Assembly: GCA_016839445.1 (NCBI GenBank)
Contig: JAEOUG010000081.1
Span: 1 to 10,169 of the forward strand
Source of the DNA: Candidatus Thorarchaeota archaeon
GTDB lineage: Archaea > Asgardarchaeota > Thorarchaeia > Thorarchaeales > Thorarchaeaceae
Reading direction: 5' to 3'
Length of the DNA stretch: 10,169 nucleotides
Shown here piece by piece: positions 1 through 10,169 of this stretch. The translations under genes and the position numbers were made by a program. A model generated the notes under the pieces. The model ran no database searches, was not told the origin of the DNA, and saw only the letters and a program-made list of their open reading frames with translations. Every line of letters starts with the position of its first letter. Within the stretch, counting starts at the first letter, position 1.

Positions 1-217
1 CATCGCCGCCTGAGATTCCGTAGATTGGTATGCCCGAACCTTCAAACAGCGTGTAGCTGTCTCTTAGCGAGCACGCCTCCATAGTGCATCCTACGCTGTT
101 GTCTGCAGGATAGAAGAACAGGACCAACTTAGAACCGCGATGGTCACGCAGTCTGAACTGGTTGCCAGATTCATCAGTGGTCTCGAAGTCCGGAGCCTCG
201 TCTCCAATCTTCAGCAT
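1..217 (-). CDS. bcp: Peroxiredoxin, BCP/PrxQ family (paralog 2; 3' end runs off the window)
   Basis: Not in the ORF track. Translated by hand from ATG at 217: MLKIGDEAPDFETTDESGNQFRLRDHRGSKLVLFFYPADNSVGCTMEACSLRDSYTLFEGSGIPIYGISGGD. It has the PxxxS/TxxC active site with CxxxxC. A GGAG RBS overlaps the upstream gene's TAG. Confidence 0.93.
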   Translation of the reverse strand, partial: MLKIGDEAPDFETTDESGNQFRLRDHRGSKLVLFFYPADNSVGCTMEACSLRDSYTLFEGSGIPIYGISGGD

Positions 218-228
218 TGGTGAGTCTC

Positions 229-711
229 CTAGATCTTCAGATTCCAGACCTTCATCACTTGGTCCGCATGTTGCTTGGTGTTGACCTTCTCCACGCCCTC
301 AGGTCCGCCTATAATAGACTCGATCTTTCCCTTCTCGTCTATGAGGAATGTCGTGCGTACGATGCCCATGTACTCCTTCCCATACATCGACTTCTTGGCC
401 CACACACCGTACTTCTTGGCTATCTCATTGTCTTCATCCATGAGGAGCGGGAATTGGAGGTTGTTCTTCTCCTTGAACTTCTGGTGGGTACTGGAGGTGC
501 CGGGTGCAATGCCGAAGACCTCTACATTCTGACCTGCGAAGTCGTCGTAGCTGTCTCGCATTGAACAGAGCTGGGCCTCACAACCACTTGTGTTGTCCTT
601 GACATACCATACCAAGGCCACCTTCTTGCCCTTGTAGTCACTGAGCTTGAATCCCTCTCCTGTCTCAGTAGTTGTCGAGAATGCAGGAGCCTTATCGCCT
701 ATCTTCAACAT
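229..711 (-). CDS. bcp: Peroxiredoxin, BCP/PrxQ family (paralog 1)
   Basis: N-terminus LKIGDKAPAF; WYVKDNTSGCEAQLC (peroxidatic Cys with resolving Cys 5 residues later); YGVWAKKSMYGKEYMGIVRTTFLID is a typical BCP signature with the conserved Arg. RBS GAGAGGT lies upstream. Confidence 0.95.
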   Translation of the reverse strand: MLKIGDKAPAFSTTTETGEGFKLSDYKGKKVALVWYVKDNTSGCEAQLCSMRDSYDDFAGQNVEVFGIAPGTSSTHQKFKEKNNLQFPLLMDEDNEIAKKYGVWAKKSMYGKEYMGIVRTTFLIDEKGKIESIIGGPEGVEKVNTKQHADQVMKVWNLKI

Positions 712-809: not shown

Positions 810-847
810 ACGGCAGGGTGTGCTCCAGTCATTGTAGGGCGAAGAAG

Positions 848-1861
848 ATGAGCGAGAAGTCCGTTATCATCAGGACACAGTCCTCTAGGGTCCTCTATGT
901 GATCACCTTCATGGGGATGGTCCTTCTGCCGGTCTTGGGTCCGATTCTCAGTAGAATCTTCGTGCCCACGACTGAATGGGACTGGTTTTCCTTTCTTGCT
1001 GTCTTCTTCGGATTTCCTGCCCTGGTTGCCGCTGTTGCGTATGTTGCAGGCTGGTACACCAAGAAGAGGAGTTGTGAGTACCACGCCCCAGACTGGGAGT
1101 ACAAGCCGGTCCAGATGTCGATTGAGGACGCAGGGCAGTTGCCTCGAAGGTACAATCGAGAATACCGTGCACTTGTGGCGAACAGCAATTACTGGATGTT
1201 CTTTGTGCCCATTCTGATCATCATGTACCTGATTGGACTGCCTGTCTATATCTACACAGTCGACCCAGGTCTTAGCAGCAACGTTGATCTCCTGTTCACG
1301 GGTCCGCTGTTAGTCCTGTTCTTCGTTTCGCTGTTGAGCGGCTATCTTGCGACCTCCAATGCAGCCTCAGAGGACTTCACCTTGCCATTGGTCCGGGAGG
1401 CCGTGAAGCTGGCTCACAAGCAGACCAAGGTTCCTGGGGCTACGCATGTATACATCGTGATGGACAAGGCTGAGCACGAGGGCTTCAAGATCTATTCGGA
1501 CCCTCGGGTCCTCTTGCGAGTCAGCGGTCTTGAGGATAAGGGATACGTAGAAAGCTGGAGCGGCGAGATAGGTTCAGTCTGGAGAATGCTCTGCAGGCTG
1601 TATGAGTCTGAGGGTCATCCTCAAGTCGTGTGGTGGTGGGTAGCACATGACCGTACTTTCAGGAAGTACGTCTTCCCCGATGAATCTGGTTACTATGTCA
1701 AGTTTCCAGTACGTTCCATGACATCGGAGCCGGGAGTGAAGGATGTTGAACTTCTCACCAAGAACGCCGTCGCCATCCTTGTACGTGAGGAGATCCACAG
1801 GTCCAAGTCTAGTGAAGCCTTGGAGAGCCTCATGGACGAGCTGAACGCCAAGGTTGATTGA
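848..1861 (+). CDS. Uncharacterised 4-TM membrane protein with C-terminal soluble domain (paralog A)
   Basis: Long ORF. I prefer ATG 848 (MSEKSVII) over GTG 818 because the putative TATA box at 803-809 is too close to 818. Two hydrophobic hairpins are separated by a ~45-aa polar loop and followed by a ~160-aa soluble domain. Confidence 0.85.
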   Translation: MSEKSVIIRTQSSRVLYVITFMGMVLLPVLGPILSRIFVPTTEWDWFSFLAVFFGFPALVAAVAYVAGWYTKKRSCEYHAPDWEYKPVQMSIEDAGQLPRRYNREYRALVANSNYWMFFVPILIIMYLIGLPVYIYTVDPGLSSNVDLLFTGPLLVLFFVSLLSGYLATSNAASEDFTLPLVREAVKLAHKQTKVPGATHVYIVMDKAEHEGFKIYSDPRVLLRVSGLEDKGYVESWSGEIGSVWRMLCRLYESEGHPQVVWWWVAHDRTFRKYVFPDESGYYVKFPVRSMTSEPGVKDVELLTKNAVAILVREEIHRSKSSEALESLMDELNAKVD

Positions 1862-1879
1862 GCCAGGAGGCTGGGCTCT

Positions 1880-2818
1880 CTGTCGCAGAGTGACTCTGGT
1901 TCCGACTTCTCCGGACCCTCGATTTCTTACTATGTGGCCATATTCGCTATCATCCAGGTCTGGGCTGTGATGACTTACGAAACAGCCCAGTATCAGCTTC
2001 TGTTCGTGTTTGAGGCACCGTGGGTGTGGGCACTGTGGGTGCTCGTCCTCACAGGATTACTCCTTCCTGCTGTTGGAATGGTCATTTGGAGGGCGAAGCA
2101 ACAAGTGGACATTCCCACCCTCGAATGGTCATTCAGAGAACGGGATGTGACTCCACTCGAGTTCAAGAACATGACGCGCCAGTACGCAAAGGACTACCAG
2201 TACTTGGTGTCCAGAGTGGACTATCCACTGGCTCTTCTTGCCATCTCGGTGGGAGTGACTCTGGTTGGAGCCCCCATTCTCTTGATGAGAACCAACGCAT
2301 TTGTCATCTCTATTACACCAATCATTGCCGGATTCCTGATGATGGTGTTCGGTGTCTTGGTGGCGACGAGCCTCTTCCGGTCTATGCCCGGACCATTGTC
2401 AGACGAGTTTCCTCCCCACTCATACAGGCGAATGAGGAGGGGGCTTTCACAGATTGGCGACCTGCCGGGAACCTCGTGGGTAGGGGTACGCCTCACCATT
2501 GGAGAGTCACACGGCTACTTCACCATTCGGTCCCCCCGACCTGAGGTTCGTATCGAGGACATCGAGAGCGTGGCAAGAATCGAATGCGAAACTGATAGGA
2601 CAGGAAACATAACCTCCGCAAGCGCTGTTCTTGAGGTCGAAGATGGTCGTGAAGAGACCGTGGCAGCAGCTCACTCTGATGTTAATCGTCTTGAACTCAC
2701 TCTGCTTGTGAAGAGGCTCTTGGAGGCTTACGTGCAGAAACGTGGTGAGGAGAGCTATCTCGACGAGATACAAGAAGAAGTACAGCGTGCCATTGACTCC
2801 CTCAAACGAACTGATTAG
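1880..2818 (+). CDS. Uncharacterised 4-TM membrane protein with C-terminal soluble domain (paralog B); start uncertain (CTG 1880 or GTG 1934)
   Basis: The frame is open from 1862 to TAG 2816-2818. A strong AGGAGG at 1865-1870 lies 9 nt before the in-frame CTG at 1880. GTG 1934 falls inside the first hydrophobic segment. Architecture and motifs match both neighbours. Confidence 0.8.
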   Translation: MSQSDSGSDFSGPSISYYVAIFAIIQVWAVMTYETAQYQLLFVFEAPWVWALWVLVLTGLLLPAVGMVIWRAKQQVDIPTLEWSFRERDVTPLEFKNMTRQYAKDYQYLVSRVDYPLALLAISVGVTLVGAPILLMRTNAFVISITPIIAGFLMMVFGVLVATSLFRSMPGPLSDEFPPHSYRRMRRGLSQIGDLPGTSWVGVRLTIGESHGYFTIRSPRPEVRIEDIESVARIECETDRTGNITSASAVLEVEDGREETVAAAHSDVNRLELTLLVKRLLEAYVQKRGEESYLDEIQEEVQRAIDSLKRTD

Positions 2819-2876
2819 AACTCAAGCGATGCTCTTATCTCTGCTCACGTAGACCTGAGCCGCGGAGGTTGAAGCA

Positions 2877-3851
2877 GTGGATGAACAAGGAGTCATAGAT
2901 TACAGTAGACAGGGACGTGTCAACAGGGCCTTTGGTCTATTGCTCCTCTTGATGGTCGTCGCTGGGACACTCGTCCATCACTTCACCTTGGTGAGCCCTT
3001 CGCTAGAGGTGGTATACATCGCCATCCCTTTTGCACTTCTCCTTCTATCATTGGCAATTGGCATGGCTTCGAAACGAGCCATAGACTACATCCCTGGTGA
3101 ATGGGAAAAGAAGAAGACCTTCGTGAGCTTCAGAGAGTATGAGCGAATGATTGAGGAATACGAAGACGCTTACGGCGACCTCGTTGCACACTCAGGCGAC
3201 ATAATGACTTGCTGTTGCCTGCTACCTGTTCTAGGGGCCTTGGGCTACATGACCATTCTATTTCAGGGTCTGGGTACAGTACTGATTCATCCCTTTGTGG
3301 ACACACTTCTCCTCACTGCCATTCTCTACAGCATCGTGGGTGTTTCAGGCTTCATCTTGGGCTTCAGGATTCCTGCCATTGATGCGGATGAGTTCTTCAC
3401 GACTCCCATGAAGGGCGGTGACACCTACGACTTCGCCTGCCAGTTGGGGGGCGTACCCGGGATTAAGGCTGGAATGACTGTGGAACTAGGAGTCCGATCT
3501 GGAGTCCAGACAATACTTGGCTCTGAGGTCAAGGCTGGAGTTGAAGGTCTTCCGGATACTGTGAGGATAGGAGTCCAGGTCTCTCACTCGGGCTTTGCAT
3601 ATCCATATCTGGTTGGAACTGTCTACAAGGGCTCCTTGATTCCATCTCCTACCGAGGAGCGATATCGCCTGGGAACCCGCTACCCTGCACTCCTTGAGTC
3701 TTCCATGGATGACGATGTAGCCGTCATTGTTGCCAGGTTCGATATTCCCAAACGCACAAGCAGTGTCCCCAGCATTTCCTCTGGTGACTTCAGGAAGCTG
3801 GCAAGACTCCTATGCGATAAGCTCAGGGAGAACTACGAAGGCTCTCTCTAG
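2877..3851 (+). CDS. Uncharacterised 4-TM membrane protein with C-terminal soluble domain (paralog C)
   Basis: GTG start with GGAGG at 2864-2868 and a CTTATC TATA-like element at 2834-2839. Same 2TM-loop-2TM-soluble layout as the two upstream genes. Confidence 0.87.
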   Translation: MDEQGVIDYSRQGRVNRAFGLLLLLMVVAGTLVHHFTLVSPSLEVVYIAIPFALLLLSLAIGMASKRAIDYIPGEWEKKKTFVSFREYERMIEEYEDAYGDLVAHSGDIMTCCCLLPVLGALGYMTILFQGLGTVLIHPFVDTLLLTAILYSIVGVSGFILGFRIPAIDADEFFTTPMKGGDTYDFACQLGGVPGIKAGMTVELGVRSGVQTILGSEVKAGVEGLPDTVRIGVQVSHSGFAYPYLVGTVYKGSLIPSPTEERYRLGTRYPALLESSMDDDVAVIVARFDIPKRTSSVPSISSGDFRKLARLLCDKLRENYEGSL

Positions 3852-3854
3852 TAC

Positions 3855-4160
3855 TCAGTCAAAGGTTGGCTTCCGAGTAGCGACCTCGATGTCCTCTTCT
3901 CGGAGTTTGTGCTGGAACGGTCTCCCCTGACCGTAGATGTCGGGGTCTTCGTCCTTCGTCTTCTTCATTATCACGTAGAAGCCTGAAACCTGAATCACAA
4001 TTGACACAATGGAGATGAGGAACACCTCTAGGAAGTAGTCGTGTGAGAAGATCTGGAATATCCAGACAGCAGGATAGACTATGATCTGAATGGCTATGCC
4101 TACCATCAACATCATGACCCATTTGTTTGTCCAGTTCTCTCGTGCCATTTTTCTCGTCAT
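3855..4160 (-). CDS. Small 2-TM hypothetical membrane protein (start ATG 4160 or 4148)
   Basis: Two clear TM segments (WVMMLMVGIAIQIIVYPAVWIF; FLEVFLISIVSIVIQVSGFYVIM) and a charged C-terminal tail. The tracked TTG at 4196 overlaps a TATA-like CTTTAATT (4202-4195), so it is an unlikely start. Confidence 0.75.
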   Translation of the reverse strand: MTRKMARENWTNKWVMMLMVGIAIQIIVYPAVWIFQIFSHDYFLEVFLISIVSIVIQVSGFYVIMKKTKDEDPDIYGQGRPFQHKLREEDIEVATRKPTFD

Positions 4161-4208
4161 CCTGTTGTGTCTGTCTTGGGCGCCAATTCGCCGCAATTAA
4201 AGATACCT

Positions 4209-5075
4209 CTATCCTCCTATCCCAAAGAGACCGAGTAGCCAGCTGATGAACTGCTCAATTGCTAGCCGCGATGGTACATGTTCAGGAATGAATCCTGGAA
4301 TCCATTGGTTCATGAGCGGCAGACTTGGAGCAAGGAATACAGCACTTAACAGCAGCAAAGCGAAGGTGATCGTGTGCACTGCTGTCACGTACGTGTAGTA
4401 GGGCCGAATGTACGAGTAGAAGGCGAATGCTGGGATGGACAGAGCAACCATTGCCATGATCTCTACGGGATCGAAGAAGAACGGCATGGATATTGGCCAC
4501 AGGAAGTAGAAGATCCAAGTGATTTTCTCACTCGAAGTTTCATGATGTGCAATCTTGTGGATGCCATCAACGCCCTGTGCCAAGAAGAACACAGGAATGA
4601 ACAGCCACCACTGGAGGCCCACAAAGAACATGGGTCCGGCATAGAATAGGAGGTCTCCTAAGCTCTCTACACGCTCCCAGAACGGGTTCCGTGAGATGAA
4701 CTCAGTCATCTCTGTCATGTAGTAACCTATCATCTGCATGAGCACAAGTACAGGTAGCAGACAGAAGGAGATGACAATCATTATCACGGCGGCCTTGGGG
4801 AGCTCGGGAATCTTGCCCTCATGGTAGTTGTCCAGCGGGTATATGCCATGAAGAGTGAAGGCCGCGATTAGTACCAGCCATCCACTCGGGATGAAGAAGA
4901 GCGGTTGAAAGAAGTATTGGAAGACTCCGAAGCCACTATACACGTTTCCCGTGAGTGCCTCCTCCTTGAGATACCAAACACCAAAGACAACCAAGAGCTC
5001 CGGAATGAGCATCTTGAGTCGGTAGTCCTGTACGAACTTCATTATGAGACCGGGTTCCTTGGTCTGCTCTTCCAT
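4209..5075 (-). CDS. Polytopic (~7-8 TM) hypothetical membrane protein, possibly a degenerate CPBP/Abi-like fold
   Basis: Many hydrophobic segments. ATG 5075 (MEEQTKE) has an AAGGTG RBS. The tracked start at 5120 overlaps a CTTAAG TATA-like box (5120-5125). Confidence 0.8.
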   Translation of the reverse strand: MEEQTKEPGLIMKFVQDYRLKMLIPELLVVFGVWYLKEEALTGNVYSGFGVFQYFFQPLFFIPSGWLVLIAAFTLHGIYPLDNYHEGKIPELPKAAVIMIVISFCLLPVLVLMQMIGYYMTEMTEFISRNPFWERVESLGDLLFYAGPMFFVGLQWWLFIPVFFLAQGVDGIHKIAHHETSSEKITWIFYFLWPISMPFFFDPVEIMAMVALSIPAFAFYSYIRPYYTYVTAVHTITFALLLLSAVFLAPSLPLMNQWIPGFIPEHVPSRLAIEQFISWLLGLFGIGG

Positions 5076-5146
5076 GGTAGCACCTTCTGCGTACGGCTTG
5101 GCAACCCCGACCGCCCTCACTTAAGCCTATCCCCTGTGTTCGACAA

Positions 5147-6184
5147 TTAACGAACTGCTTTCTCGACTAGCTCTAGGAATGTCGATGTGAACTCACTGGT
5201 TTTGGCGTGGATTTCTCGCGTGAGCTCGATACCTGCACCGGAGAGGCCGCACTGCGTTGAGACCATTGCGTTTCGCGCGAGTCGGCCGATGTCCACACCA
5301 CTTGTGTCAAGCATCTCTAATGCGGAGCTGAGGTTGTCTCTGAAGGTGTCAAGTACCGGCTTGGTGAAGGAGTCGTCCAGATTCGGCAGGACTCCAAGAG
5401 CGATTCCTCCTCCTCGACTAAGAAATCGGTTCACTTTCTCGGCCTGCTCGGGGTTGACCTTCGGAGGGTACCTCAACATGTCAAGATGCAGAATCTTCGG
5501 TCTGGAGTCCCAGAGAGCATGCCAACCATTGACCTCAAGTTCTCGCCAGTCATCGCAGTAGTGATAGGCTGGGATAACATCATCCGGGAAGATGGAGTCT
5601 GTTCTCGCAATCATCTCTTGAAGGTACAGATCTGGAGCTTTCTGTTGGTCGATAAGATTCTTGACATGCCCAATGCCTGGGTCATCTTGGCAGAAGAGAA
5701 TCGTGTCACAGTGCTTCCTTAGTATCTGCATCTGACCCTGGGCGATTCTGGACATCAGACGGCAGTAGAAATGAAAGAGCTGCTCTGAGAGATGCTGTCT
5801 TCCTGATGAATCTCTTATGCTGAAGGCCATTGTTGCAGGCGCAGTCTGCTGCGTCTTCATGAACTCGTAACGCGCCCCATCGAATAACGAGTAGAGGCTC
5901 TGGAAGTGCTCCCTGTCAACGAGAATGGATGTGTCATCGCTCGTCATGCTTCTGAATGTTTGAATGTCAATGTCCAACACGAAGTCGCCATGTTCTTCGA
6001 ATCCCTCGATAACGGAACCGAACTGCCGAATCATGTCCTCGCTCCGATTTGCTGGAACTTGGAATGTGTAGGGAACCCTCAGGGCCTTGATGTATGACAG
6101 AGCATCGCTGTGATTCTTCTCACCGAGGCTGCCGACGCCGAAAAACTGCCCCGCCAACTCCTCAGGCAGCAGAGGGCTTCCCAT
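5147..6184 (-). CDS. Core (cobalamin-independent, MetE C-terminal-like) methionine synthase / UROD-MetE TIM-barrel Zn enzyme
   Basis: Motifs in the expected order: GVGSL, QQTAPAT (cf. QxTGPxT), QDDPG (cf. DEP), H208-Y-C210, LHLD235, GGGIALGVLP, VSTQC312GL. These include the H-x-C...C zinc ligands. Single barrel of 345 aa. An AGGTGA RBS overlaps the upstream stop. Confidence 0.8.
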   Translation of the reverse strand: MGSPLLPEELAGQFFGVGSLGEKNHSDALSYIKALRVPYTFQVPANRSEDMIRQFGSVIEGFEEHGDFVLDIDIQTFRSMTSDDTSILVDREHFQSLYSLFDGARYEFMKTQQTAPATMAFSIRDSSGRQHLSEQLFHFYCRLMSRIAQGQMQILRKHCDTILFCQDDPGIGHVKNLIDQQKAPDLYLQEMIARTDSIFPDDVIPAYHYCDDWRELEVNGWHALWDSRPKILHLDMLRYPPKVNPEQAEKVNRFLSRGGGIALGVLPNLDDSFTKPVLDTFRDNLSSALEMLDTSGVDIGRLARNAMVSTQCGLSGAGIELTREIHAKTSEFTSTFLELVEKAVR

Positions 6185-6190
6185 TTCTTC

Positions 6191-7906
6191 TCACCTAGGT
6201 GTACGTTCTCTTCGTCGCCTAACAATCTTGTTGCATGATTGGATTGCTGGGCATCCTTCGCAATCTGTCGGCACATCTTCTACAACCTGCTCTCCACCGT
6301 AGTGCAGGAAGTGCTCAGCGACCTCAGAGTCCTTCGTCTTGACCTCTTCTCCCTTCTCTGACCGTTTCTCCACCATGCACTTCAGGTCTTTGAGTTTCTC
6401 TGAGAGTTTCTCGATGTCTCCTCGGACAACTACTGCTGTGGGCCCAACCTGTCTTATGACGTTCTTCTTGAACTCAGGCTGTATCATCATGTTGTCCATG
6501 TCCTTCTTGCTCTCTGTTTCGAATAGGGTCACCTCGCTTAGAGTAGCAAAGGTCGTTTGAGATGTCCAATCCTGTATCGACCGAGCGACATTGCGGGGTA
6601 CTGGCTTGCTGCTCTCTCTCTCAAGGAAACCGAGGATATCATCAGCCCGGAGACCTAGTTCTATCGCTTCAAAGACTGATTTGCCAGTTATCTTGAAGGA
6701 GCTAACCACATCAGTGCGCACGGGCTCAGTAATCAGCATCAGTCTATACAGGTTCTCGTACTTCATTTCGGCCGTGAAGACAGTTACATCGAAGTTGGGC
6801 TGTACGAAGAAGGTCTCATCCACCGGGGGTCTCTCTGGCTTCTTGTTCAGAAGAACAGCGGCTCCTATGTCAGTCAACCTGACTGCCAGCAACTTCTTTC
6901 CTCGATATGCACCCTCAATGATTCCAAGAAGCAATGGCGTTTCGAGAGAAAGCTGTACTCTTTCTTCATTGACCTGTATCCACTTCAGAGGTTGGTTGTC
7001 GATGAAGAGCTCGCTTCTGATCCAGTCGCGTAGCTCCTCCAGACTTACCCAATCTTCAGCTTTGCTCTCCCGAAGCCTGCAGATGGCAAGATTCAACGTG
7101 TATTCGGTGGGCTGGTCCGGGGTTGCCCAGATTGCCCTAGTCCTCCCGAGAGATGCAAGCAAGATTCGGCGAGCCACCTGATGCTGCTCTCCTGAGAAGA
7201 GAACATCTGGGTTGTTGGCGATGACATGGTCTTCTTCAACAATCGAGTAGGCCCCTGCTTTCCGAGCTGTCTTCTGAACTAGCTCGAAGCGCTCATCGGT
7301 AGGATTGGACATTGCGGCCTTGATTTGGTCGATCTCTCTTCTCGGGAATTCCCATGCCGATGTCATCCTCACCTCGTTCTTAGAGATATGCGCAATTAGG
7401 AGAAGCATGTCAATTAGCAATGCATCTCGCTCATTCTCCACCGTCTTTGTCTTCTTGGGCTTCTCCGGCTGTGGCTCGGGCCTAGCAGAGAAGTGTTCCT
7501 CAAGGTGTGGCATGAAGTAGTCAAGCACTTTGAACTCTGCGACCTCTCTTCCAAACTCAGTCACTCGGCTCATCATGCGTCGGATGATGATTCCTTTTCT
7601 GCGGAGATCCTTCTCCGTCTGGTTGAGCTGTCCATAGCTGTAGATCTTCCTGAACGGCTTCAGCCTGTCGTAGCTCATTGCCCCATCATTCAGCACAAGC
7701 ATTCCCAGAAGATCGCGTTCAATGTCCGAGAGTGAACCGAAGATGCGTTCTCTGGCCTCAGGATTCCGCATCCTCTTAGCTAGCATCTTGATTAGAGAGT
7801 CTCCGCTGTCCTTGCCTGTGACCTCGATATCCCAATACTGGCAGGCGTACAGCAGGTCCTCTCGAAGAATGTGTTCAATCTCACCCTCTAGCGATTCCTT
7901 AGGCAT
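6191..7906 (-). CDS. Helicase-associated domain protein (XPB/Ssl2-NTD-like, Helicase_C_3); Tfb2/p52-like architecture; no helicase motifs
   Basis: aa 366-447 (nt 6811-6566), FFVQPNFDV...FKITGKSVFEAIELGLRADDILGFLERESSKPVPRNVARSIQDW, is a typical Helicase_C_3 pattern. The N-terminal region is helical and wHTH-like. No Walker A or DExH motif. C-terminal CEGCPAIQSC. Confidence 0.85.
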   Translation of the reverse strand: MPKESLEGEIEHILREDLLYACQYWDIEVTGKDSGDSLIKMLAKRMRNPEARERIFGSLSDIERDLLGMLVLNDGAMSYDRLKPFRKIYSYGQLNQTEKDLRRKGIIIRRMMSRVTEFGREVAEFKVLDYFMPHLEEHFSARPEPQPEKPKKTKTVENERDALLIDMLLLIAHISKNEVRMTSAWEFPRREIDQIKAAMSNPTDERFELVQKTARKAGAYSIVEEDHVIANNPDVLFSGEQHQVARRILLASLGRTRAIWATPDQPTEYTLNLAICRLRESKAEDWVSLEELRDWIRSELFIDNQPLKWIQVNEERVQLSLETPLLLGIIEGAYRGKKLLAVRLTDIGAAVLLNKKPERPPVDETFFVQPNFDVTVFTAEMKYENLYRLMLITEPVRTDVVSSFKITGKSVFEAIELGLRADDILGFLERESSKPVPRNVARSIQDWTSQTTFATLSEVTLFETESKKDMDNMMIQPEFKKNVIRQVGPTAVVVRGDIEKLSEKLKDLKCMVEKRSEKGEEVKTKDSEVAEHFLHYGGEQVVEDVPTDCEGCPAIQSCNKIVRRRRERTPR

Positions 7907-8066: not shown

Positions 8067-9173
8067 TTGGAACCTCTTCTCTGGTGTGTCAAGTATAGGC
8101 CACGTTCATGGGATGACTTCGTAGGTCAGGACAGGGCAATCAACCAGCTTAGGGGGCTGGCTGCGTCAAAGACACTCACCAACATGATCTTCTATGGACC
8201 GGTTGGGACCGGGAAAAGCGCGGCAGCCGAGGTCTTCGCCAGGGAGTTACTTGGAGCGAGTTACGACTCCAACTACATGATGCTAAACATTCGTGATGTG
8301 TGGGATACGCCGGCTTCAAAGGCCAAGAGATCAGTCCAAGACCTGGCAAAGATCGAGAGAGGAAAGCGAAGCCGTCTAGACGAATACATGTCTGTCATCT
8401 ATCGAGAGGCCAAGGCGGCGAGAAGCGCACGAGGACGCTCTGGAGAGCCAACTCGAACCCAGCTTGTTCAAGAAGCAATCCGCTTCTTCGCCTCGACTGC
8501 GACGGTGTCTGACTTCAGTGTGAAGCTTCTCGTCTTGGATGACGCTGATGCGCTCACCTTCAGCCTGCAACAGGCTCTGCGCAGAACCATGGAGATGTAC
8601 AGTGACATCTGCAGGTTCCTCCTGATCACTCCTTCACTAGCAGGATGGAGTCCTGCTATTCTCTCCAGGTGCAATATAGTCCGGTTTCCGGGAGCCTCTG
8701 AGGATGACGTTTCTTCACTTGTCGAGGGGATTGCCAAACGTGAGAGTGTGAAGGTTGATGAAGGTGGCATCCGGGCAATCGCAAAGGAGTCCAATGGAGA
8801 CATGCGGAAGGCAATCAATCTGCTCCAAGTAGCTGCTGCCGCAAGTCCCGTAGTGAACGAGGACGCTGTCTATGAGAACTCGGAGACCCTACTTGCATCA
8901 ACGGTGAGGAAGATTGTCAGCAGTTCCATCGCTGGGGACTATGACTCCGCAAGGAAGAACCTGCGACGCCTGCTGGCTCTTGAAGGGTACTCTCCGCAGG
9001 AGATCTGTCTTGAGATAGAGCGGGACATCGTGAAGCGTCCTCTCGAGCCCCGTCTCATGGAGCAGATACTGGATCGGATCGCGGAGATTGACTTCAGGAT
9101 GACACAGGGCAAGAACGCTTTCATTCATCTGACGGCACTGCTCGCCTCAATACGGGCAATGACTGCGAGCTAG
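8067..9173 (+). CDS. rfcS: Replication factor C small subunit, atypical (RFC-S2-like) clamp-loader AAA+ protein
   Basis: WCVKYRP (RFC box II), Walker A GPVGTGKS (aa 44-51), Walker B variant VLDDAD (DDAD at aa 158-161), QQALRRTME, SRC arginine finger (aa 200-202), GDMRKAINLLQ sensor 2 and a C-terminal collar domain. TTG start. Confidence 0.9.
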   Translation: MEPLLWCVKYRPRSWDDFVGQDRAINQLRGLAASKTLTNMIFYGPVGTGKSAAAEVFARELLGASYDSNYMMLNIRDVWDTPASKAKRSVQDLAKIERGKRSRLDEYMSVIYREAKAARSARGRSGEPTRTQLVQEAIRFFASTATVSDFSVKLLVLDDADALTFSLQQALRRTMEMYSDICRFLLITPSLAGWSPAILSRCNIVRFPGASEDDVSSLVEGIAKRESVKVDEGGIRAIAKESNGDMRKAINLLQVAAAASPVVNEDAVYENSETLLASTVRKIVSSSIAGDYDSARKNLRRLLALEGYSPQEICLEIERDIVKRPLEPRLMEQILDRIAEIDFRMTQGKNAFIHLTALLASIRAMTAS

Positions 9174-9175
9174 GC

Positions 9176-9463
9176 TTAGACAAGTGGCTCGACATCCTCT
9201 CTGACGCTCACTTTTCCACCCAGACTGGCAGTAAGATTGTAAGGGAGCTCTTGTTCTGAGTAAACGAACTCGGAACTGAGTCTGCCATTCTCGCTGCTAA
9301 CCATCTCGTTCTCCAAGGCGAGCGTCAACATTCGCCTGATGTCCGATGGGCGGCCGTACCTGCAACGGAACGAGAGGAAGTCAACGGCATCTTCCACATG
9401 GATCGGATTTCCCATCTTGCGAAACATGTGAGCTAGGAGCAGGAGGATGTGCCGTCCGTTCAT
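9176..9463 (-). CDS. DUF2240-like small archaeal protein (winged-helix-like)
   Basis: LSFRCRYGRPSDIRRMLTLALENEMVSSENGRLSSEFVYSEQELPYNL matches my recollection of the DUF2240 N-terminal pattern (LS.....f.P.....l...A....l......l...Fd......P). Family assignment needs an HMM check. Confidence 0.65.
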   Translation of the reverse strand: MNGRHILLLLAHMFRKMGNPIHVEDAVDFLSFRCRYGRPSDIRRMLTLALENEMVSSENGRLSSEFVYSEQELPYNLTASLGGKVSVREDVEPLV

Positions 9464-9513
9464 GTCCGTTTCGCAGCTCGACAGGCTTTTAGAGGTTGCC
9501 GAGCAGGCCTCGC

Positions 9514-10169
9514 ATGGCGATGAATGGCGCGACTGACGTTGTGCACGGTCACACTCTCATGGAGCTAGCAGCCCTACTTGAGGAGACATGGCCCGGGATT
9601 CACGCCAGACCCAGTCTGAGCCTGTCCGGCAGCAGAGGCCTATCCAACGTCAATCTCCTGGGAGAGGTTGATGGTCTTCGATTCGTCTTGAAGCTCCCAT
9701 GGAGAATGGGATTCTCTGATTCAGATCCATATGCAGTCCTCAATGATGTCTCTTCCCACGTGGCCGGGAATGGCCTCGGGCCTAGACCATTGGCACACGG
9801 CCGCTTCTCGGATGATAACCGGACTCCCTTCATTGCCCTTGAGTATCTTGATGGACTCACGGTGAGTTCAGTTCAGGAGCTTGCTCCAGAGCGAATTCAA
9901 GAATTGTGTACTGCTCTGGCGAGGCTCAAGTCGTTGAAGCCTCCAAGAGCCGTGTTGTATGAAACGCCTAGAGCGTACGTCGATTCTCTATATGGTCGCC
10001 TGCACGGTTATTCGCAAGACGCATTGGTGGCTGATGGCTTGGCAATGGAGTTCAACTGTGTACAGGACGACCTCTTGGATTTCTCCTCTGAGATTCAACA
10101 ATGGTCAGGTCTCTTTATGCATGGAGATCTTCATGAAGGGAACATTGTGTTCACTGAAGGCGGTGTTCG
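9514..10169 (+). CDS. Aminoglycoside phosphotransferase/choline kinase-like (APH family) kinase, partial (3' end runs off the window)
   Basis: Not in the ORF track. Frame 1 is open from ATG 9514/9520 to the window end: ...RGLSNVNLL...FVLKLP...GLGPRPL...FIALEYLDG...FMHGDLHEGNIVF. The Brenner motif HGDxxxxN is at 10120-10143. Confidence 0.9.
   Translation, partial: MAMNGATDVVHGHTLMELAALLEETWPGIHARPSLSLSGSRGLSNVNLLGEVDGLRFVLKLPWRMGFSDSDPYAVLNDVSSHVAGNGLGPRPLAHGRFSDDNRTPFIALEYLDGLTVSSVQELAPERIQELCTALARLKSLKPPRAVLYETPRAYVDSLYGRLHGYSQDALVADGLAMEFNCVQDDLLDFSSEIQQWSGLFMHGDLHEGNIVFTEGGV

Follow-up and report, generated by a model that had tools for sequence, protein, structure and literature searches.

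A Thorarchaeal protein with the domain order of TFIIH p52, a probable docking partner of a long-type XPB

The window analyzed here is the whole of contig C45 (JAEOUG010000081.1; 10,169 bp), part of a 2.9-Mb assembly of a Candidatus Thorarchaeota genome that is 89.8% complete. Its reverse strand carries an open reading frame (ORF) of 571 amino acids (aa), referred to below as the p52-like gene after the p52/Tfb2 subunit of the eukaryotic transcription factor TFIIH, which grips and activates the DNA motor XPB. The ORF is real and conserved in Thorarchaeia; chance is excluded, as the best 120 of its 194 relatives at E ≤ 0.001 are full length and 62–90% identical. Close relatives that carry a name are annotated as “helicase-associated domain-containing protein” and all come from Candidatus Thorarchaeota, Sifarchaeia or Promethearchaeota. 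This places the host among the Asgard archaea, in the Thor lineage, a point that a preliminary description of the locus, made from the letters alone, had left conditional; the replication factor C (RFC) small subunit encoded next door is consistent with an archaeal host. The gene and its parts are as follows.

6191..7906, reverse strand: p52-like “helicase-associated” protein P0001, whole gene with stop codon (ATG start, 571 aa)
6842..7906, reverse strand: N-terminal helical region and winged-helix array, aa 1–355 (AlphaFold2 model; collinear with the p52 domains NTD and MD1)
6548..6826, reverse strand: “clutch” domain, a copy of the XPB N-terminal domain, aa 361–453 (Pfam Helicase_C_3, VIA and hhalign)
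6374..6544, reverse strand: small alpha/beta C-terminal domain, beta-beta-alpha-beta-beta-alpha, aa 455–511 (folded alone and compared with VIA)
6194..6379, reverse strand: Thor-specific tail with a basic end, aa 510–571, containing four invariant cysteines (C510, C549, C552, C558)

The protein matches the Pfam family Helicase_C_3 (PF13625, the XPB N-terminal-domain family) at aa 368–456 with E 1.4e-11 and 44.9 bits, above the cut-off of 34.2. No helicase or ATPase family, neither ResIII nor Helicase_C, was found by Pfam, and the NCBIfam rad25 and XPB models match only over their N-terminal 40–130 positions (17–23 bits, cut-offs 329 and 610). Judged from its sequence, the protein lacks the two RecA-like lobes with superfamily 2 helicase motifs of XPB/Rad25, as the preliminary description had said of the ATPase motifs, and the annotation carried by its relatives fits: PF13625 is above the gathering score and helicase motifs are absent. 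Pfam searches at E up to 10 with the N-terminal 365 aa and the C-terminal 132 aa gave nothing useful.

We then turned to the predicted structure. The AlphaFold2 model, built with 128 aligned relatives, has a mean predicted local distance difference test (pLDDT) score of 88.7 and a predicted template modeling score of 0.78, with pLDDT below 50 only at residues 257–262 and 519–540. It consists of a helical and winged-helix N-terminal part up to about aa 355, an alpha/beta domain at 361–453 and a small alpha/beta domain at 455–511. All three parts that had been proposed from the letters, the helical/winged-helix-like N-terminus, the XPB-like domain and the small alpha/beta segment, are thus present in the model at the residues given for them.

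Searched against the PDB with Foldseek, the model retrieved p52/Tfb2 chains at ranks 1–19 (E 5e-11 to 1.9e-5, 333–562 aligned columns), the best being 9pd3_D with E 5e-11 over 523 columns. XPB chains followed, with about 160 aligned columns and 18–20% identity. The entry titles of 6TRS and 6TRU name p52; the cryo-electron microscopy chains are those that we take to be p52 from chain length and residue range (up to 461). Pairwise comparison with VIA aligned 382 of 434 residues of 8ebu_D at Z 15.1 (model 42..511 to chain 26..461), and gave Z 14.8 for 7nvv_2 (158..508 to 151..458) and Z 10.1 over 219 residues for 6tru_D, the N-terminal half of p52 (58..354 to 41..318). Single winged-helix regulators (QsrR, HxlR, MarR) also reach Z of about 9–10 on the N-terminal part. 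At the level of folds, the N-terminal and middle winged-helix/helical domains are collinear with NTD and MD1 of p52, and in both Foldseek and VIA the p52/Tfb2-like domain order that had been claimed holds throughout, starting with the winged helices and ending with the C-terminal domain. The p52 domain names used here follow the consulted parts of PMC6422496 and PMC7708078.

The clutch domain, MD2 in p52, has the fold of the XPB N-terminal domain. It superimposes on that domain of human XPB (7egb_6) with Z 16.8 and a root-mean-square deviation (rmsd) of 1.1 Å over 91 residues at 24% identity (model 362..452, chain 72..164), and on XPB 8ebt_A with Z 14.8 over 93 residues. With hhalign, aa 399–494 match residues 47–145 of the host's own XPB at a probability of 95%. 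Across the family, the clutch is the best-conserved part.

The small C-terminal domain (strands at 460–463, 483–488 and 491–494, helices at 467–480 and 498–507 in the AlphaFold2 model) was also folded alone, as aa 452–520 (69 residues) with 123 aligned rows, which gave a pLDDT of 89.8. Among 48,161 representative chains compared with VIA, only two reached Z ≥ 5: XPB 8ebt_A, from residue 171 (Z 6.9, 65 aligned), and yeast Tfb5 7o4i_5 (Z 5.7, rmsd 2.1 Å, 55 aligned). Lower scores were obtained for p8 in 6trs_D (Z 4.1), the Tfb2 C-terminal domain 3dgp_A (448..508, Z 3.9) and p8 in 2jnj (Z 3.8). Foldseek returned p8/Tfb5 chains in all of its top 15 places. When the Foldseek list was compared with VIA, all 10 chains at Z ≥ 5 were either XPB (Z 6.1–7.6, residues 172 onward) or Tfb5/p8 (Z 5.0–5.3), and the C-terminal domains of p52/Tfb2 scored 3.1–3.8. 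Taken together, the comparisons with Tfb5 give an rmsd of 2.1–2.3 Å over 55 residues (Z 5.7 and 5.3), p8 lies at Z 3.8–5.0, and the likeness ranks the domain that follows the N-terminal domain of XPB first, p8 second and the C-terminal domain of p52 third. The earlier proposal of a p8-like end therefore stood in part: specific p8/Tfb5 matches appear at the level of fold, weakly, but the scores stay below proof and the XPB domain is closer. In the modeled fold, a p8-like small domain is supported, not proven. The DRD-like small domain of XPB has a fold that is common to p8 and the C-terminal domain of p52.

Given the hhalign match and the clutch and small-domain matches to XPB, the last 150 residues are a paralogue of two consecutive XPB parts, the N-terminal domain and the beginning of the DRD-like domain after it (human XPB ~71–300). 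Unlike in XPB, this two-domain unit is not followed by RecA lobes or helicase motifs. Beyond it lies the tail, modeled with low confidence at 519–540 and with a helix at 555–568. Its cysteines C510, C549, C552 and C558 (aa 510–558, 6233..6379, reverse strand) do not vary among the 18 aligned Thor proteins; three of them make up the pattern C-x2-C-P-x4-C, and the fourth is on the last strand of the small domain. All four are kept in the relatives P0121 and P0123 and missing from the other aligned relatives. From this pattern, the four-cysteine tail is probably a clade-specific metal site.

The preliminary description had noted that no XPB gene is present in the window and had called for a search of the genome for an XPB with an N-terminal domain. 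Such an XPB, of the long type, exists. A second Helicase_C_3 match in the genome (125.3 bits) lies at the N-terminus of a 572-aa ORF on contig C188, which is XPB by the equivalog NF045503 over its full length (875 bits, against 363 bits for rad25). This host XPB scores 299.8 bits to yeast Rad25 and 157 and 129 bits to short archaeal XPBs.

C188:65512..67230: XPB gene (NF045503); the contig ends at 67654, 424 bp beyond the ORF

The last 127 bases of the window (10043..10169) are the exact reverse complement of the end of C188, and a gene for an APH-type phosphotransferase that is broken at the window end continues with its 3' part on the end of C188, directly followed by XPB. Both pieces of this gene match a single ORF of 366–369 aa in two related genomes (G140 and G075). 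C45 and C188 are therefore neighboring contigs, with XPB placed 2.56 kb upstream of the p52-like gene and on its strand. The absence of XPB from the window is literally true, but the gene lies only some 300 bp past its right end.

Of the 43 genomes of the order with the p52-like gene, 37 have XPB upstream on the same contig and strand, at 1.7–5.8 kb, by a hand count from match coordinates; in the other six, the host included, the two genes are on separate contigs. The order of genes is XPB, the APH-type kinase (opposite strand), a DUF2240-like gene, the RFC small subunit (opposite strand) and the p52-like gene, and it recurs, with gaps, in the five related loci inspected. The p52-like gene is thus encoded with an XPB of the long type (NF045503).

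To see how widely the pair occurs among Asgard archaea, 201 genomes were compared: 43 of the host's family, one of its sister family and 157 of 25 other families. Helicase_C_3, the p52-like partner and full-length XPB are each present in 42 of the 43 host-family genomes and in the only sister-family genome; for the partner, one of these 42 matches, in a genome that is 71% complete (G197), comprises the XPB domain only. Within these two families the partner is found down to 36% identity, with conserved synteny. None of the three was detected in the 157 genomes of the 25 other families.

The distribution of Bax1 (PF05626) is the reverse, with 86 of the 157 other Asgard genomes against 3 of the 43 of the host's family (G016, G069 and G075), and Bax1 was not found in the host genome. 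The two XPB systems split cleanly into a long XPB with the p52-like partner and a short XPB with Bax1. A 2026 review, in the part available to us, gives XPB-Bax1 as the Asgard arrangement (PMC12993045). Bax1 resembles the p52-like protein in being a dedicated partner encoded with an XPB; it differs in being a nuclease, with an unrelated fold. All three Bax1-containing genomes in this family show an additional XPB-like match. In two of them the listed coordinates put this match, a short one, beside Bax1 (G075:C4:9672-11319 and G069:C63:12896-14520); the third Bax1 genome is represented by G016:C202. As a short XPB-like match and Bax1 occur in genomes of this family, both XPB systems are able to coexist.

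The family extends well beyond Asgard archaea. A profile of the Thor proteins retrieved 2256 of 1.84 billion representatives at E ≤ 0.001, only six of them at E ≤ 1e-30, and the best relatives outside the Thor lineage are 18–25% identical; the core common to the family is about aa 306–510. Members with a name come from Thermoplasmata, a “Euryarchaeota” bin and Planctomycetota, and atlas neighbors, which serve as leads only, are clusters of Bacillota, Spirochaetota, Planctomycetota and Chloroflexota. Among 41 relatives scanned with Pfam, all 41 have Helicase_C_3 and eight have a C-terminal WYL domain. Tfb2 is detected at E ≤ 0.001 in 20 of them and above the cut-off in three (P0133, P0172 and P0202; 36–39 bits), while the two Thor-clade representatives among the 41 have no Tfb2 match.

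The pair of XPB and p52-like protein also occurs in other archaea and in bacteria. In the Thermoplasmata sequence CP070751.1, a 570-aa XPB with 60% identity to that of Thor runs into the beginning of the gene for a family member of 418 aa, and in the Methanomassiliicoccales sequence CP070739.1 XPB likewise overlaps the start of the partner gene. With this gene layout, XPB and its partner are an operon in Thermoplasmata. In CP070739.1 a single ORF upstream of the partner (L026, 6187..7017) holds only the C-terminal 214 aa of XPB; the N-terminal part may be encoded in a different frame, or the gene may be disrupted. With these prokaryotic PF13625 proteins beside long-type XPBs in bacteria and Thermoplasmata, the Thor protein has in common the core of winged helix, clutch and small alpha/beta domain (~306–510), a full-length alignment with P0126, P0132, P0172, P0202 and P0220, and the link to an NF045503-type XPB. 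It differs in forming a separate deep clade, in carrying the four-cysteine tail where eight of 41 relatives have the WYL domain, and in lying three genes from XPB, in contrast to the overlap in Thermoplasmata. The Thermoplasmata members stop right after the clutch and lack the small domain.

A tree of the core was computed from all 128 alignment rows, none dropped and most of them lacking a taxon name, by a quick search under LG+G4, without an outgroup or eukaryotic sequences. The 19 Thor rows and P0123 form one starred clade with a Shimodaira–Hasegawa-like approximate likelihood ratio test (SH-aLRT) value of 98, beside a group with named archaeal members and apart from a group of 77 rows. The protein is therefore not nested in a bacterial clade in this tree without an outgroup, which makes a recent bacterial transfer, one of the outcomes envisaged beforehand, unlikely.

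These results are best accounted for by a joint explanation, to which we assign a probability of about 0.65: the p52-like gene encodes a non-catalytic partner of the host's long XPB with an N-terminal domain, built like p52/Tfb2 of TFIIH, and its family travels with the long-type XPB, the short archaeal type being accompanied by Bax1 instead. The protein is most likely an XPB-docking partner. By analogy with TFIIH, the clutch would dock on the N-terminal domain of XPB, its beta-sheet packing against that domain to give a pseudo-symmetric pair, and the small C-terminal domain would sit against the second RecA lobe. Together the two could hold XPB in a shape competent for ATPase activity; the pair would tune the XPB ATPase, and the winged-helix array may bind DNA or other factors.

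The proposed contact was modeled by predicting the complex of full-length XPB with aa 355–520 of the p52-like protein, in three runs and with three controls. The score was 0.56, with 0.00 for the best control; the runs share at least 88% of contacts, and the partner has a pLDDT of at least 80. Of 157 solved complexes, 116 reach the mark that was passed, as do 2 of 215 mismatched pairs. The co-folding proposed in the preliminary description thus gave a pair that passes its controls, but with a score in the weak band, and the prediction lends weak support to XPB binding. Synteny and co-occurrence point toward binding and stimulation of XPB as well.

Compared with p52/GTF2H4/Tfb2 (6TRS, 6TRU, 6NMI chain D, 8EBU chain D and 7ZS9 chain 2), the Thor protein has the same order of modules: N-terminal winged helices, a middle helical/winged-helix part, a clutch folded like the XPB N-terminal domain and, with weak support, a small C-terminal domain of p8-like fold. 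Like p52, it is non-catalytic and is found in a genome that has an XPB with an N-terminal domain. The identity is only 11–14%, the Thor protein is about 110 residues longer and ends in the four-cysteine tail, and its clutch resembles the XPB N-terminal domain (24% identity) more closely than it does the clutch of p52. Such a tail is not known from p52.

Several observations weigh against a partner built like p52. The whole-length superposition on p52 has an rmsd of about 20 Å and a template modeling score of 0.25–0.34, so that domain order and folds agree but the mutual arrangement of the domains differs. At the sequence level, Pfam Tfb2 (PF03849) matches over the clutch only (aa 366–432 to profile positions 291–356 of 358) with E 1.9e-4 and 20.9 bits, under the cut-off of 34.5, and the same profile gave 15.8 bits for the protein in the genome search. 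Pfam found no match to Tfb2_C or Tfb5 in the protein, and the Thor profile retrieved from the PDB sequences only XPB N-terminal domains (E 5e-4), neither p52 nor p8. For the small domain, no Foldseek match reaches E ≤ 0.001 (0.07–0.6 for the top 15), all Z scores are below 8, and VIA flags this range as a possible common arrangement only. No p8, p34 or p44 family was detected in the 89.8%-complete genome, and the control genomes also have none above the cut-off: the best Tfb5 hits (E 0.16 and 0.47) lie under a cut-off that the controls fail to pass as well, and Tfb4 and Ssl1 have no match in the host genome, the controls being silent for Tfb4 and without an Ssl1 hit above the cut-off. XPB and the p52-like gene are linked in Thorarchaeia but form no operon, with three genes between them, two of which are on the opposite strand. 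As to the predicted complex, the mark is reached with a score of 0.60 or less by only 18 of the 157 solved complexes and by both of the mismatched pairs that pass, and since XPB-p52 complexes have been solved, the pass may reflect memorized structures.

The layout of the locus would also suit a DNA-binding or regulatory winged-helix protein that acts independently of XPB, perhaps together with the RFC subunit, the XPB-like fold being a structural module only. The RFC small subunit is adjacent and divergent in five of five related loci inspected, an adjacency that the consulted part of PMC9258230 also reports for what is probably the same family; by the gene layout, there is no co-transcription with XPB in Thorarchaeia; and several of the winged-helix modules are MarR/HxlR-like. 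We nevertheless consider this reading unlikely, because the co-occurrence with the long XPB is strict in the sample, the genes of Thermoplasmata members overlap XPB in operons, conservation across the family is highest in the clutch, and the complex prediction beats its controls, if weakly. Recent acquisition from bacteria, leaving the protein without a settled role in the archaeon, fits the many bacterial members of this large family (atlas neighbors in four phyla, a named member in Planctomycetota) and its absence from the other sampled Asgard families. The scarcity of close relatives (six representatives at E ≤ 1e-30, the best outside the Thor lineage at 18–25% identity), the position of the starred clade of Thor proteins and P0123 (SH-aLRT 98) outside the 77-row group, and the presence of the gene in 42 of 43 family genomes and the sister family, down to 36% identity and in conserved synteny, make it very improbable. 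No bacterial relative above 50% identity, atypical composition or mobile-element flanks were seen at the locus, where the GC content is 0.49–0.54 throughout.

A further rival makes the protein a vertically inherited Asgard ancestor of eukaryotic p52, the XPB-p52 module having come from the archaeal host and disappeared from the remaining Asgard lineages. In its favor are the Asgard host, the complete p52 order of domains with its p8-like end, a Thor clade that is deep and not nested in a bacterial group, and a Thor XPB that scores much higher against yeast Rad25 (299.8 bits) than against the short archaeal XPBs (157 and 129 bits). Against such descent, the pair occurs in a single order among the 201 Asgard genomes and in none of the 157 of other families, the Thor XPB fits the prokaryotic NF045503 (875 bits) far above rad25 (363 bits) and is 60% identical to a Thermoplasmata XPB, and the Tfb2 profile gives 20.9 bits or nothing in Thor members where P0133, P0172 and P0202 reach 36–39. 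Judged by these sequence scores, the Thor branch stands no nearer to eukaryotic Tfb2 than other prokaryotic members do, some of which score higher, and this weakens a special bearing on the origin of TFIIH. Direct ancestry of p52 is thus improbable and unproven, and we likewise give little credence to a Thor XPB-partner pair that was inherited vertically within Asgard archaea as the direct forerunner of the XPB-p52-p8 lobe of TFIIH.

If that descent were true, the clutch and C-terminal domain of p52 would have begun as a duplicate of the XPB N-terminal and DRD-like domains, p8 would have arisen later as a free copy of the small domain, and the archaeal host of the eukaryotes would have had a regulated XPB motor before TFIIH. 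The relevance to the origin of TFIIH that the preliminary description had foreseen for an Asgard host keeps that host, but is weakened by the restriction to one Asgard order, the wide family, the low Tfb2 scores and the XPB-like small domain; a special relevance is weakly supported. What the locus offers is an Asgard-lineage protein with the complete p52 domain order near a eukaryote-like long XPB. The regulation of XPB by a clutch partner becomes testable in a two-protein prokaryotic system, and there is a concrete hypothesis for the origin of p52 and p8, namely duplication of the N-terminal two-domain unit of XPB. The value for eukaryogenesis is limited by a distribution that is narrow within Asgard archaea and wide outside them.

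In the consulted parts of the literature on archaeal and Asgard TFIIH, XPB and p52, no prokaryotic p52 is described. As far as the available text of each goes, a 2026 perspective states that archaea have XPB and XPD and that the remaining TFIIH subunits are absent (PMC13153155), and a 2012 paper reports finding no p52 homologues in bacteria (PMC3353954). Meheust et al. (2022) describe, in the part consulted, a “TFIIH-like” family, fam18955, annotated as ERCC-3 and distantly RAD25-like, in three Asgard and three Theionarchaea genomes with 20–23% identity between the groups; it adjoins the RFC small subunit in Asgard archaea and is not related there to p52 (PMC9258230). This is probably the p52-like family, as the description fits. 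Added here are an archaeal example, from Asgard, a test of the small domain and the contrast with Bax1.

The other genes around the p52-like gene are these.

8067..9173, forward strand: RFC small subunit, divergent neighbor (NCBIfam NF001679, 268.9 bits; Pfam Rep_fac_C)
9176..9463, reverse strand: DUF2240-like gene of 95 aa, located between XPB and the p52-like gene (Pfam DUF2240 at E 0.0014, a weak match under the cut-off)
9496..10169, forward strand: APH-type phosphotransferase, 5' part, running off the window (Pfam APH, E 3.9e-12)
5147..6184, reverse strand: 345-aa gene, variable neighbor, beginning 6 nt past the stop codon of the p52-like gene

The RFC small subunit has 368 aa, and its residues 132–365 match positions 84–317 of NF001679, which points to some 48 inserted residues within the N-terminal ATPase part. 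A homologue of the DUF2240-like gene is present in three of the five related loci inspected (L020, L021 and L022).

The 345-aa gene was considered as a third partner and set aside. It is kept in L021, L022 and L024 and missing from L020 and L023, that is, from two of the five related loci, and it has no Pfam, NCBIfam or PDB sequence match. Its atlas neighbors, a lead only and the sole basis for calling it MetE C-terminal-type, include “methionine synthase family” and MetE C-terminal-like clusters (score 0.94). It is probably functionally unrelated to the p52-like gene.

Farther along the window, 818..3851 (forward strand) and 3855..5120 (reverse strand) hold a run of predicted membrane proteins whose MFS_1 and TauE matches are weak and under the cut-offs. 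This run is syntenic among the related genomes, with a 303-aa gene inverted in G140.

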